Below, piece by piece: positions 16,747 through 46,395 of a stretch of 64,000 nt of DNA (positions are counted from its first letter, which is position 1; each line of letters begins with the position of its first letter). The translations under genes were made by a program, and so were the position numbers. Source of the stretch: a bacterium (GTDB taxonomy: Bacteria > Patescibacteriota > Microgenomatia > UBA1400 > PJMF01). The stretch spans positions 11,874-75,873 of the forward strand of contig JAFRKQ010000009.1 in assembly GCA_017431625.1 (NCBI GenBank), given 5' to 3'. The notes under the pieces are model-generated. The model had not been told where the DNA came from and searched no databases. It worked only from the letters and a program-made list of their open reading frames with translations.

Positions 16747-16876
16747 TGAATTCTACTCCGAAACGCGACACCGAGGGGATAATTTAGGCAAATACCTGGG
16801 ATAGCTCACATTATTACAATATAATGATTACTAAATTAGCAATTTGATAATCATTATCAATTTGATACAATCTCAC
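16747..16876. repeat. 130-bp direct repeat, copy 2, containing a Fur box
   Basis: See copy 1; identical over about 130 bp. Confidence 0.9.
16844..16860. promoter_or_regulatory. Fur-box palindrome TTGATAATCATTATCAA inside repeat copy 2
   Basis: Perfect 7-1-7 Fur consensus. Confidence 0.5.
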
Positions 16877-16930
16877 CTTTTTGTTAAACGCGTGTTAAAC
16901 ACTCACATCTGGTTTTTGGTGACAAAATTA
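16874..16930 (+). repeat. cassette-boundary repeat R0 (5'-truncated variant): ttgttaaacgcgtgttaaacactcacatctggtttttggtgacaaaa
   Basis: Shares the tandem GTTAAACGC units and the ATCTGGTTTTTGGTGACAAAA block with R1-R9. Confidence 0.7.
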
Positions 16931-16951
16931 ATAACATTACCAATAAAAAAA

Positions 16952-19036
16952 CTATCGATTGGCCCAATACTCGCGCAATCCAGGAAGCATCGAGTCAAAT
17001 TCACTTCGATATTGCGCGATTAATTGCGTATCCAAATTACTAGTCGCAAAACGTTGCGGCGAAACTTGATTGGAACTCTCAGAATAAAAGTCTTCGCCCA
17101 TAAACGCACGCTGACCATAATCATCAAGCACAAATTGTTGATTATATTGCGGCAAGCCAAAACCACCATTACCATTGGTGGGATCAAAAATATAAATTTC
17201 TCCACCTTCGCCATTGTCATTGGGGATATTGACGCCCACATAGGCATGGCGACCTCGCACTTCACCTGTATCAGCGCGAGCGACCCCGCCCAAAGTGTAG
17301 CAATCATAACCAAGCCTTTCCATGACTGCGTGATAAACAGAGGAAAAGCCAGTGCAAATTGCTTGCTGTTCATCAAAAGCGCGCGACATCTCGTATGATT
17401 GTTGCTCTGAGGTGGGAATCGTAAATTTAATTGGTGTCTCGTAATAATTATGATCATAATTTATGAAGTGATGTAAATATTCATTAAGCAAGACACTAGT
17501 GCGAATTGTCTGAGCACGCCGCTGACTCGCCGGCACTTCACTGGCCGGCACCAGACCCAAAAGATCAATCGTATCTTGGATTCCCTCAGAGACGATGCGA
17601 TCACGTTCAGGTCTTTCACTGATAAATTGATCATAGACTTTGAGTCGCCAACTATATTCAGGATGCCCTGCCACCAACTGACGAAAAAAGGGGTCGCCAC
17701 CATAGTGACGCACGCTTTGCGATGCGGGCAAATTGCGGAAAAAGTGAGCTTGACCAGCTTGTGTCAAATAATAATGTTCCTGACCGTCGCTGCCAATTTG
17801 GCGGCGAGCCATAAGCCGAAAATATTCGCTCCCGCCAAAACGAGCTTCCACTTGCGCCGCCGGTGTCCGCGCCAAGTATTCTTCCATTGCCGAAAAATCA
17901 ACCTCTGGGGCATGTGGCAACTCGCCACCGGGGTACATATTCTCTGTGCGATCATCGATTGCTGAGAGCAATGTTGAGGTGTCATATTTAGTCGCATAAA
18001 AGTCTTCAATTCTTGAATGCGAACGGTGTGTCGAGTGATACTCCTGATAAGCCTTCACAACGGCCTGACTTAACTCATCGCGATAACGTTCGATAGCCGG
18101 GTTGCTAGTAACCAAAGGTGCCCGCCGCTTACCATCAGTCAGATAGGGAATCAAATCATCCTCATTGCCAGGCGCATGAGCCATGATCACCCGCATCGTA
18201 CTTGGGTCATAGCGGAAGTCCTCCGTTTGGAGCCAATTCTCGTCAACAGGCAACTGGTCATATTGTTCCTGGCGTTGATTGACTTGTTGGGCAGCTTCAA
18301 AAGCGCGCAAAAAACTGTGATCGCGGGCTCCGATTTGTCTTACTTGTTCAGGTGTCAAAGTATATTCCTGCTCGTGATCGCGCGCCACCACATCGCCATA
18401 AGCAAGAAAGTCAAATGTCAAAGTATCGTGATCAAAATTAAGCGAGTTAGTATCTATTTCTTCTTCCGGCTCTTCATCTGCGCGTTCGGCTGCCGCCTCC
18501 TCTTCTTGTAATTTTTGGTAAGCAGCTTTTAGGCGTTCATAAAATACAGGATCGCGTTCACAAATTCTCTTAATCTGATCAAAATTTAATTTCACATCGT
18601 AATTACGATCACCAACATAAATCTCACCGTGCAAACCAAAAACAAATTTCAAAGTGTCATGATCAAAAACTACTGTCTCCACATCCACTGTTGTCTGTTT
18701 GGGTTGTTCTGGCACTCCCAAAGATGACACTTCAGTAGATGGCGTTGGGGTACTAGCGCCACTTTCACGCAATGTTCGCAAAAACTCACGTCCACGCTGC
18801 GAGCCGCCATAGCGTTTGATAAAATCAGTCAAGCTCAAACTTTGCGTTTCGCCTGCGTATTTGATCACCACTGTCTGGCCACCATCAATACTGGATAAAT
18901 GGGCTTGCTCAAGAGGAATGGCAAAAGATGTGTTTTCCAATTCTGATTCGGGCTGCTCGTGATCGAGGGTCGGTAATTCTGAGTCAGTCGCCAAAAGACT
19001 CGGATCAAGGACGGCTGTTTCTGTTTGTGTTGACAT
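16952..19036 (-). CDS. large protein with internal ~50-aa repeats and a C-terminal transglutaminase-like cysteine-protease core
   Basis: C-terminus QAICTGFSSVYHAVMERLGYDCYTLGG...GRHAYVGV...IYIFDPTNG gives a Cys/His/Asp transglutaminase-like triad; repeats VVFDHDTLKFVFGLHGEIYVGDRNYDV and LNFDHDTLTFDFLAYGDVVARDHEQEY; promoter TTGGCA...TTATAAT at about 19040-19075 (minus). Confidence 0.65.
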   Translation of the reverse strand: MSTQTETAVLDPSLLATDSELPTLDHEQPESELENTSFAIPLEQAHLSSIDGGQTVVIKYAGETQSLSLTDFIKRYGGSQRGREFLRTLRESGASTPTPSTEVSSLGVPEQPKQTTVDVETVVFDHDTLKFVFGLHGEIYVGDRNYDVKLNFDQIKRICERDPVFYERLKAAYQKLQEEEAAAERADEEPEEEIDTNSLNFDHDTLTFDFLAYGDVVARDHEQEYTLTPEQVRQIGARDHSFLRAFEAAQQVNQRQEQYDQLPVDENWLQTEDFRYDPSTMRVIMAHAPGNEDDLIPYLTDGKRRAPLVTSNPAIERYRDELSQAVVKAYQEYHSTHRSHSRIEDFYATKYDTSTLLSAIDDRTENMYPGGELPHAPEVDFSAMEEYLARTPAAQVEARFGGSEYFRLMARRQIGSDGQEHYYLTQAGQAHFFRNLPASQSVRHYGGDPFFRQLVAGHPEYSWRLKVYDQFISERPERDRIVSEGIQDTIDLLGLVPASEVPASQRRAQTIRTSVLLNEYLHHFINYDHNYYETPIKFTIPTSEQQSYEMSRAFDEQQAICTGFSSVYHAVMERLGYDCYTLGGVARADTGEVRGRHAYVGVNIPNDNGEGGEIYIFDPTNGNGGFGLPQYNQQFVLDDYGQRAFMGEDFYSESSNQVSPQRFATSNLDTQLIAQYRSEFDSMLPGLREYWANR

Positions 19037-19217
19037 GACAAAACAATTATAACACGAAACAAAAGACTTGCCAAAATATATATGTGCCTCATACAGCCTC
19101 TTGACAAAACTGATGTCTTGTAATATACTACCAGTAGTTAGGGGACGAGTCGAGCCTCTAGTGGCTCATTAACATTACTTTTTCCTGACATAATTCCATA
19201 GAAAGAAGGCATTAGTT

Positions 19218-19871
19218 TTGTCATTGAAAATTCTCAATATTTCTGGACCATCCTGGATACAGGATCAGTCCGGCCAGAGGCTGTTTAATCGTGAGCTCAA
19301 CTCACAGACAGCCAGCATCTACTTGCGCACCCCGCCCGCTTGTCATCTCGAGTCAACACCATCACGACTGGTCTTAATCGACAGCCACCTGATCTTAGAG
19401 CCGACCACCTCCGAGCACAACGAGCGCCTGTTTCTGGTCAACCTGGCAGCAATCGGAGAACGCGATGACGATAATTACAACTACGACAAAGTCAATGACT
19501 TTATATTGGCCGAGGATTACTGTCGGCTTGTGGAGCACTGGTTTGTCGAGCGAATGATCGGCATCAACAAAAAAGGTAGGCAGCACTGTTTGTCCGTTCT
19601 CATTAAAGCCCTCACCAACGAAGCTCGGGTGGCGTTTTTCTTTAGCACCGAAGGCTGCAAACACATTCTGCTAGCATCCGATGTTCGCGGTATCCGCACT
19701 CATCATTTTGACACTGCGGTTTTTAGTCAGGACTTCATCTATGATCGGGTCCTCAAAGAAGTATATGACTGGACGAGTTTTCGTCTCGATGAGCTGAGCG
19801 TTTCCTCCAAAACTCCCATGACATATCTCGACAAAATAGTATCCAAACTGCGCCGGTCGCTGGGTCTTTAA
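19218..19871 (+). CDS. hypothetical protein (TTG start per ORF track; true start uncertain)
   Basis: 217-aa ORF preceded by a TTGACA, 17 bp, TAATAT promoter at 19110-19138 and an AGAAGG RBS. Confidence 0.45.
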   Translation: MSLKILNISGPSWIQDQSGQRLFNRELNSQTASIYLRTPPACHLESTPSRLVLIDSHLILEPTTSEHNERLFLVNLAAIGERDDDNYNYDKVNDFILAEDYCRLVEHWFVERMIGINKKGRQHCLSVLIKALTNEARVAFFFSTEGCKHILLASDVRGIRTHHFDTAVFSQDFIYDRVLKEVYDWTSFRLDELSVSSKTPMTYLDKIVSKLRRSLGL

Positions 19872-45490: not shown

Positions 45491-46141
45491 TCAAGCAAAT
45501 TCATCAATTTGTTCTTGTAAGTGTTTGAACACCAAAGCCACTAAATAACCATCAGCAATCGCGTGATTAAGTCGGACTGTCACCGGCATCAGCAACTGGC
45601 CGCTTTCTTCTCGATACTTACCCCAATTCACGATAGGCGGGAAAAATAAGTGTCCGTCTGGCAATTCCAAGTGAAGCGCATCATAAGACAACCATGGAAT
45701 AAACGAGGCGTCAAACCAATTGGGATGATTGGTCATATCTAATCCGTATTCTCTGGTGTGTTTGGCTCGTTCCACATCGCGCAAAGCAGCTGAGTAAAAT
45801 TTTTCATAATTCTCATAGTATCTTGTATACACGGGCGTGCAAGTTTCCGTGTCCTCATGAAACACATATTGAGTCGGATTAATGACGTCATAGCAGATTA
45901 GTTCATTAGTTTCGTACAGAAAACTCATTTTATAATCGTCACGAGAATTGAGGACTTTACAAAGCAGATAGAGGAAGTTGATGTAAAACTTTGTATGAGT
46001 TTTTTGAGAGTATTGTACTAGCGGTGTGACATTTATCTTTGCGGTTATGCTGATAGAGCACTTGCAATCTTGAGTAAAATGGCGATAAACGCCAGCGCGG
46101 TAGTATTTTTGCGGGTCAATAGTTTTGTAGTTTTTTGACAT
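45491..46141 (-). CDS. chloramphenicol-acetyltransferase-family (type A CAT-like) acetyltransferase
   Basis: 216 aa; [26 protein letters not shown]...[21 protein letters not shown] parallels CAT [26 protein letters not shown]...[37 protein letters not shown] parallels the catalytic LMPLAIQVHHAVCDGF. Confidence 0.75.
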   Translation of the reverse strand: [216 protein letters not shown]

Positions 46142-46180
46142 ACATCAACATTCCTGTCAACTGACGAGTATTCTCTGGTG

Positions 46181-46255
46181 GGTGCCCAACGGGACTCGAA
46201 CCCGCGGCCTTCGGGACCACAACCCGACGCTCTAACCAACTGAGCTACAGGCACC
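46181..46255 (-). tRNA. tRNA-His (GTG) with an encoded extra 5' G (G-1)
   Basis: Reverse complement g-gtgcctgtagctcagttggttagagcgtcgggttGTGgtcccgaaggccgcgggttcgagtcccgttgggcac-c; anticodon loop TTGTGGT; promoter TGtgGTATAAT on the minus strand at about 46270-46290. Confidence 0.75.
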
Positions 46256-46344
46256 ATCTCAAAAAGCAGACAAGTGTATTATACCACAAAAACCATCATT
46301 TTAGCTGACATTTTTTACTGTTCACAAAATTTACTCAATAACAT

Positions 46345-46395
46345 CATTTTGTTAAACGTTTGTTAAACGCTCACCTCTGGATTTTCGTAACACCC
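46345..46395 (+). repeat. degenerate relic of the cassette-boundary repeat (R10)
   Basis: ttgttaaacgtttgttaaacgctcacctctggattttcgtaacacc retains the two GTTAAACG units and the cacatctgg block. Confidence 0.55.

Follow-up and report, generated by a model that had tools for sequence, protein, structure and literature searches.

A one-way array of boxed repeats between accessory and defence-type cassettes beside tRNA-His in a Patescibacteria genome

How does a bacterium with a very small genome keep a flexible pool of genes? Patescibacteria genomes are of this kind, and the upkeep of such a pool in them is poorly understood. The locus considered here, a stretch of 64,000 nucleotides (the window) from contig JAFRKQ010000009.1 of the Patescibacteria assembly GCA_017431625.1, which represents an uncultured bacterium of the gut, raises the question through a repeat family, R, whose copies stand between accessory genes from 16.9 kb up to the neighborhood of a tRNA-His gene near 46.2 kb. 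A first-pass annotation had described this DNA as one low-GC island of ~29 kb, integrated at tRNA-His and bounded by the repeats. The accessory, compositionally atypical, defence-rich, and evolutionarily fluid character of the stretch is supported; the single integration is not. The reading favored here, with modest confidence, is that of a modular region in which repeats delimit accessory and defence cassettes and recombination at these repeats is the likely driver.

The repeat family itself is real. Its core, TGTTAAACGNNTRTTAAAC, has 12 matches at 11 loci (16882, 20043, 21320, 22126, 23904, 26695, 29427/29438, 31394, 33111, 34461, and 46350), all on the plus strand, versus 0.04 expected by chance in the window, and the series from the leftmost copy (R0) to a degenerate last copy (R10) stands as first annotated. 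The copies are alignable across ~100 nt, with repeat sizes of 48–100 bases, and their constant part is a 48-nt unit, TGTTAAAC-N3-TGTTAAAC-N9-TGGNTTTTNGTNACA..., which is 83–100% identical among R0–R9 and 69–75% identical in R10. The two TGTTAAAC boxes, each an 8-mer, are 11 bp apart, or one helical turn. Both are unchanged in 10 of the 11 copies, the diverged R10 included (16/16 box positions identical, the rest of R10 being only about two-thirds consensus-like); in R3 the second box reads TATTAAAC. Variation between copies concentrates in the 3-nt spacers that separate the boxes. Because the boxes are constant and the spacers variable, the tandem boxes suggest a putative protein-binding site, resembling that of a protein that binds head to tail. 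In R6 (29427–29459), three tandem 11-mers (TGTTAAACGCG x3) are present, versus two in the other copies, which shows slippage in box copy number.

Each R-to-R interval holds a single gene or a single co-oriented gene set, in either orientation. The exceptions to this one-operon rule are R0–R1, which holds a divergent pair, and R9–R10, which spans 11.9 kb. Cassettes carry their own promoters and are 0.8–4.7 kb in size. The variable region begins at 13.0 kb or earlier, reaches 46.4 kb, and is laid out as follows.

12982–13135, plus strand: left copy of a 154-nt direct repeat, equal to the R0 left arm and ending where the TGTTAAAC core would start.
13136–16881, minus strand: present/absent unit of 3,746 bp, comprising the gene of an 1188-aa protein (13134–16700) with its promoter, as well as the other copy of the 154-nt repeat.
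16859–16929, plus strand: R0, the leftmost junction repeat; left arm diverged, truncated past the 48-nt unit.
16952–19871, unstranded: unit R0–R1, a 694-aa transglutaminase-like orphan (minus) and a 217-aa protein (plus), with core-like GC.
20010–20109, plus strand: R1 junction repeat.
20125–21090, minus strand: RhuM-Fic cassette, a candidate defence gene (PADLOC PDC-S23, E = 1e-124).
21287–21386, plus strand: R2 junction repeat, with a far-left "X module" at 21126–21235.
21448–22082, plus strand: VapBC-type toxin-antitoxin cassette (DUF2281 and PIN).
22093–22190, plus strand: R3 junction repeat, with the altered second box.
22199–23667, minus strand: cyclophilin-like and alpha/beta-hydrolase cassette, with a YhcG 3′-end remnant at 23781–23872.
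23872–23985, plus strand: R4 junction repeat.
24047–26534, plus strand: His_Phos_1 and PMT_2 glycosyltransferase cassette, with an X module lacking the core between the genes (24595–24700).
26662–26759, plus strand: R5 junction repeat; far-left flank R6-like, far-right flank R7-like.
26910–28865, minus strand: cassette of a Fib_succ_major / ALK-LTK glycine-rich domain protein.
29394–29486, plus strand: R6 junction repeat, with the three tandem 11-mers, truncated past the 48-nt unit.
29631–31085, minus strand: AAA_14/DUF4143 ATPase cassette (PADLOC PDC-S01, E = 4e-29), with a core-like GC content at third codon positions (GC3) of 0.49.
31362–31475, plus strand: R7 junction repeat, with a terminator and pseudogene fragment (31538–31754) alongside.
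31904–32746, minus strand: cassette of a 280-aa protein with no family match in Pfam and weak-hit scans.
33107–33200, plus strand: R8 junction repeat; left arm unrelated to the family, 48-nt unit identical to that of R9.
33406–34434, plus strand: YhcG (DUF1016 / PD-(D/E)XK) cassette; contig L032 stops within R9.
34429–34549, plus strand: R9 junction repeat.
34555–46141, unstranded: R9–R10 block, the most AT-rich part (GC 0.36).
36333–36366, minus strand: possible inverted R relic (left-arm end and one box), 74% complementary.
45491–46141, minus strand: gene of the chloramphenicol-acetyltransferase family (CAT).
46180–46254, minus strand: tRNA-His(GTG), found by ARAGORN and Rfam, with a promoter at ~46262–46300 and its 3′ end facing the array.
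46313–46398, plus strand: R10, the rightmost and most diverged copy, with its core at 46350–46398, flanked by the stop codon of epmA on one side and the promoter of tRNA-His on the other.

The genes were assigned by scanning 44 open reading frames (ORFs) across the window: Pfam was used for 40 ORFs of 86–1188 aa, NCBIfam, PHROGs, and PADLOC were used for those without matches, and weak-hit scans were added. Pfam confirmed the annotated content of RhuM-Fic, VapBC, three YhcG proteins, AAA_14, CAT, an AlkD-like protein, and one Fib_succ_major protein. The R9–R10 block harbors the AlkD-like gene, decayed membrane-protein ORFs, unknowns of 420, 409, 362, and 145 aa, a frameshifted YhcG (YhcG322), a second YhcG (YhcG367), an 86-aa ORF, and CAT. 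Defence-type genes are clustered in the array (PDC-S23, PDC-S01, VapBC, and the three YhcG PD-(D/E)XK genes), and GH3, epmA, typA, and rpsU lie in the flanks, as had been annotated.

Could the layout be that of a known site array? As in sedentary chromosomal integrons and integron arrays without an integrase (CALINs), the sites form a long, one-orientation array, are highly similar within the genome, and lie between small cassettes with toxin-antitoxin, defence, and unknown cargo; in addition, GTTAAAC conforms to GTTRRRY, the pattern of attC R′ boxes. A classical CALIN with R as attC is nevertheless hardly credible. Folding of R as single-stranded DNA, on either strand, gave z values of −1.1 to 0.0, with no significant fold, the RNAalifold consensus structure of R reached −3.4 kcal/mol with 0 covarying pairs, and Rfam returned no match to R even at E ≤ 1; thus, R is neither an attC site nor a structured RNA. 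The attC hairpin, the R′′/L′′–L′/R′ symmetry, and the inverted R′′/L′′ partner in particular are absent, the conserved feature being a tandem direct 8-mer instead. The cassettes, unlike those of integrons, are larger, occur in both orientations, and carry their own promoters. IntI was not found within the 64 kb, which would count against an integron, although a CALIN does not need it. A MITE (miniature inverted-repeat transposable element) or REP-type (repetitive extragenic palindromic) repeat was also considered and rejected: inverted arms and a stable hairpin are absent in R, and all copies share one orientation.

The flanks of R bear directly on recombination. Beyond the 48-nt unit, the two flanks of a copy assort independently of each other. 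The far-left flank of R5 pairs with that of R6 (91%), its far-right flank pairs with that of R7 (86%), and the left arms of R4 and R9, as well as those of R1 and R7, pair at 92% each. The left arm of R8 is unrelated to the family, yet its unit is identical to that of R9, and the similarity of R0 and R6 to the family ends at +48. From these pairings and the patterns of R8, R0, and R6, it follows that breakpoints recur at both edges of the 48-nt unit, which is the apparent footprint of repeated exchange at or beside it.

Several relics fit cassette turnover and decay. The YhcG 3′ remnant by R4 aligns over 23781–23985 with 34337–34541 at 79% identity, YhcG322 (42260–43400) is a frameshifted pseudogene with its C-terminal part in another frame (43227–43400), and a coreless junction fragment, an X module, separates His_Phos_1 from PMT_2 (24595–24700). 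In addition, two 98% identical copies of a GC-rich bidirectional terminator are present, at 31538–31754 and 63126–63254. The 3′ end of a 265-aa gene (63195–63992), which adjoins this terminator, is likewise duplicated into the array beside R7. Since both were copied from 63.1–63.3 kb, the array is partly built of local core DNA.

A second junction element, E2, occurs in the tRNA-proximal third of the array as four plus-strand copies, each lying ahead of the promoter of the gene that follows.

36131–36203, plus strand: E2 copy a.
40170–40242, plus strand: E2 copy b, ahead of the promoter that serves the 362-aa gene.
42109–42181, plus strand: E2 copy c, preceding YhcG322 and located where a 64-aa ORF ends.
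43689–43761, plus strand: E2 copy d, preceding YhcG367 and located where a 70-aa ORF ends.

Two more copies (15276–15350 and 17811–17885) are found in the tRNA-His locus of another species (contig L016). E2 reads as the C-terminal end of a small ORF (...GDxWREIRxQLLEVDYxMIxxFL), in the window at 42001–42195 and 43563–43775. It is conserved across the two species and adjoins YhcG-type genes; it may act as a DNA site, encode a small protein, or be a relic.

Variation between strains adds one precise event. Same-species contigs occur in ENA gut-type metagenomes at 99–100% identity. One of them (L034, ERZ28019060) is 99.7–99.9% identical to the window but lacks 3,746 bp (13136–16881), joining window position 16728 to 13135; the missing stretch contains the gene of the 1188-aa protein with its promoter. 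The gene is present in L035, which comes from another sample (ERZ28654653). The unit is flanked by the 154-nt direct repeat that equals the R0 left arm. Segments 12998–13135 and 16744–16881 differ by 1 mismatch in 138 nt and then diverge exactly at the boundary TTTT/TGTTAAAC. The longest exact stretch of the repeat (133 nt) is shorter than the assembly k of 141, so that a simple assembly skip is unlikely to explain the indel.

An assembly artefact of wider extent, in which repeats caused chimeric joins and the cassette order is unreal, is very unlikely. Short contigs do break at R (L032, 1,650 bp; L157, 2,821 bp). Against this, independent assemblies from several samples reproduce the R0, R1–R4, R6–R7, R8, and R10 junctions at 99.7–100% identity; the R5 junction and the right-hand side of R9 lack such support.

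The strain-variable gene also bears on the left limit. In a set of 5.8 billion proteins, those of 622 and 694 aa are orphans; for the R0–R1 unit, which holds the latter, the only homologue in that set is 40% identical. With the 1188-aa gene strain-variable and orphans located left of R0, R0 is not the boundary of the variable region. The region starts at or before ~13 kb, perhaps at 10.8 kb, rather than at 16.9 kb.

Homologous recombination between dispersed direct repeats gives rise to gene gain and loss, as in the "minimal mobile elements" of Neisseria, and naturally transformable bacteria swap cassettes through flanking homology. The event seen here, a precise indel between 154-nt direct repeats, is of this type. 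The array differs from such systems in that the homology is a dedicated boxed repeat at every junction and not conserved flanking genes. In the favored reading, that of a modular region, small cassettes would have been acquired independently and arrayed between same-direction copies of R, with E2 serving the tRNA-proximal third. The cassettes would be gained, lost, and reshuffled via recombination between the directly oriented repeats, either by homologous exchange of the RecA type, which would include cassettes excised as circles and inserted again or replaced following DNA uptake, or, alternatively, by a site-specific recombinase encoded outside the window.

Several observations weigh against such a role of R. 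A single structural variant was found; the remaining same-species contigs (L018–L019, L021, L023–L032, L156, and L157) are collinear, and therefore the array is not rapidly shuffling in the sampled population. The indel is flanked by the 154-nt left-arm repeat and not by two full R units, and simple deletion between the duplicated upstream regions accounts for it with no special role for R. The R5 junction and the right side of the R9 junction are without confirmation by independent contigs. None of the 44 ORFs scanned in the window yielded a recombinase or integrase domain. Finally, the viral scan and the strict metagenome scan gave 0 matches to R outside the window, and the relaxed scan gave matches at chance level, the genome collection not having been scanned for R.

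In the main rival, R is a regulatory or architectural element that spread by local duplication between the genes of an ordinary variable region, without driving cassette turnover: the operator of a head-to-tail regulator, a silencer, or a site for a nucleoid protein. The invariant 8-mers 11 bp apart look like direct-repeat operators, AAACGCG-type motifs are enriched in the R arms (25 matches versus 8.8 expected), the neighboring 1188-aa protein harbors tandem MerR/Xis-like helix-turn-helix (HTH) repeats, and a single structural variant was seen. However, R stands upstream of genes, downstream of them, or between convergent or divergent pairs, with the same orientation in all 11 copies. Since R points one way while genes point both ways, it is not a promoter-linked element; a promoter-linked operator would track gene orientation. 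The promoter-like hexamers within R are not conserved either (TACAAT becomes ATCAAT in R4, R5, and R9), and recombination is needed in any case to account for flanks that are mosaic and break at the edges of the unit. A purely regulatory R is thus a possibility to be taken seriously, but a doubtful one.

The 1188-aa protein (13134–16700, minus strand) offers a potential link between the boxes and a binding partner. Its C-terminal half falls in a large family that is uncharacterised and has no Pfam model, with 369 representatives at E < 1e-3. The family has a conserved N-terminal domain of ~280 aa, with motifs such as RTxLVCDEEGNATYVFD, followed by 3–5 tandem repeats of ~70 aa. The AlphaFold model is confident (pLDDT 87.6), and the repeats in it match HTH domains of the MerR/RacA/BldC and excisionase types, while a structural match search with the model gave nothing for the N-terminal domain. 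MerR/Xis-like multi-HTH proteins bind direct repeats head to tail; hence, the 1188-aa protein is a candidate partner of the tandem TGTTAAAC boxes, a lead rather than a finding. A bolder proposal builds on it: R could be a double-stranded, tandem-TGTTAAAC recombination site of an undescribed integron-like gene-capture platform in Patescibacteria, served by a trans-encoded recombinase and possibly helped by the HTH repeats of the polymorphic 1188-aa protein. This is speculative and rather unlikely. If true, the platform would give a reduced genome a stockpile of accessory and defence cassettes.

What, then, is the part of tRNA-His? The alternative carried over from the first-pass annotation is one genomic island that an integrase placed in the 3′ end of tRNA-His, with the repeats marking its extent. 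The region resembles tRNA-linked genomic and defence islands in its low GC, its defence cargo, its position at a tRNA 3′ end facing the low-GC DNA, and the different cargo found in a relative. The proximity of the tRNA to the last repeat was also correctly noted, the R10 core being 95 nt from the 5′ end of tRNA-His (46180–46254, minus strand). R10 is thereby located upstream of the tRNA, at a break in synteny. The rpsU–typA–epmA order is kept in the three nearest relatives (L001–L003), in which synteny stops past epmA and no tRNA follows. With R10 and the synteny break both upstream of tRNA-His, the tRNA belongs to the variable side and is not a core edge, unlike in tRNA-targeting islands, where the tRNA remains joined to the conserved flank. 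The nearest epmA among 185,579 species genomes is 63% identical, in the metagenome-assembled genome (MAG) "Patescibacteria group bacterium" GCA_045541795.1 (TypA 92%, RpsU 93%). The T4SS_pilin genes and the Patescibacteria-type homologues of AAA_14 fit the placement in Patescibacteria.

A tRNA-targeting island would show a direct repeat of the tRNA 3′ part at its far boundary. No tRNA-His segment recurs in the window on either strand (14 nt exact, or 16, 18, 22, and 26 nt with 1, 2, 3, and 4 mismatches, respectively). The region further differs from tRNA-linked islands in that no integrase was found among the ORFs scanned and in its modular interior. Given these observations, the cassette-specific composition described below, and variability that reaches left of R0, a single tRNA-inserted island is improbable. 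tRNA-His and CAT are better regarded as one array unit than as the attachment site of a single island.

In the same relative's MAG that keeps rpsU–typA–epmA, tRNA-His is again followed by CAT, at a locus apart from that block (L016). There, a GLF/glycosyltransferase cluster lies upstream of tRNA-His, and an rve_3 fragment is followed downstream by YhcG, SLFN_AlbA_2, SduA (Shedu), YhcG, and SNase genes, a hot-spot-like arrangement. Similarity to the window is confined to 45483–46292, ending just short of R10. The CAT ORF differs from that of L016 (10001–10651) by 5 synonymous changes in 651 nt (99.2% identity), and identity falls immediately outside the ORF. The two tRNA-His genes are ~90% identical and the core block 73.5%. 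The contrast between 99.2% and 73.5% indicates a recent exchange of CAT between the two lineages, a concrete case between gut lineages whose core genes have diverged by 26%. The DNA 3′ of tRNA-His is variable and defence-rich in both species. The annotated hot spot is therefore supported in a loose sense, through the different YhcG and defence genes downstream in L016, while targeting of the tRNA by an integrase is not.

Composition further separates a cassette array from one island. GC3 is 0.48–0.58 in the right-flank genes and 0.55 in GH3, in line with the annotated GC-richer flanks. In the genes between 20.1 and 46.1 kb it is 0.26–0.44, with AAA_14 (0.49) standing out inside that stretch. 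GC is 0.35–0.38 at 20–23.5 kb, 0.40–0.46 at 24–31 kb, 0.34–0.39 at 31–46 kb, and 0.42–0.51 in the R0–R1 unit (16.9–20.0 kb). The claim of ~29 kb of low GC thus holds for the genes of 20.0–46.2 kb and fails for R0–R1 and AAA_14, which are core-like. Composition shifts from cassette to cassette (GC3 0.26–0.49). Of the two annotated edges, the right one is sharp, at ~46.2–46.4 kb, which by itself favors a single island, and the left one is gradual, with variability continuing past R0.

The modular reading can be placed against what is reported for the phylum. Across 125 Patescibacteria genomes, genomic islands, prophages, and transferred genes have been reported in the hundreds, with up to 13% of genome length being attributed to horizontal transfer and one island carrying a restriction-modification system (PMC12455944). 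The islands in that account are IslandViewer predictions, and its description of them makes no mention of integrase, tRNA, or repeat-delimited cassette structure. Genomic islands in Patescibacteria are thus already known; no described system matched the layout of cassettes delimited by same-direction repeats without an attC fold. Single-operon cassettes, including candidate anti-phage genes, between sites that all point the same way would store and exchange accessory genes compactly. If the R sites truly recombine, they would represent a second, structurally different answer to the problem solved by integrons. If R copies are only homology patches or operators, the locus would be an ordinary yet neatly modular defence island.

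Further features of the window and of related contigs were noted. In a human gut contig (L039, ORMS01000332), two same-orientation copies of TTGTTAAACATTTGTTAAAC lie 1,475 bp apart (617–635 and 2092–2110), each preceded by a similar GC-rich left flank, GCGCGACCACCGGGAGCGAATCC; the box layout is like that of the window, and the DNA is unrelated. In L035, GH3 (7024–9240, equivalent to 8377–10614 of the window) is called as two ORFs of 363 and 368 aa, versus one ORF of 745 aa in the window, and the split in the ERZ28654653 strain may be a strain-specific disruption.

A conserved 62-nt promoter module (TTGACA-N17-TATAAT with upstream sequence, minus strand) is found at 12938–12999, 51586–51647, 59637–59698, and 62297–62358. 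It precedes several genes, including the 31%-identical paralogues at 50010–51452 and 58114–59484. Two divergent T4SS_pilin paralogues, at 7121–7519 (minus) and 7736–8167 (plus), share segments of 54–61% identity, and the plus-strand ORF at 7134–7607 is probably spurious. A second low-GC patch (window 1–4300, GC 0.38) ends at tRNA-Asn (4063–4135) and tRNA-Trp (4250–4321). It carries a GmrSD_N-like gene (2495–4060) and a 411-aa unknown, and is probably another accessory or defence patch adjoining tRNA genes.

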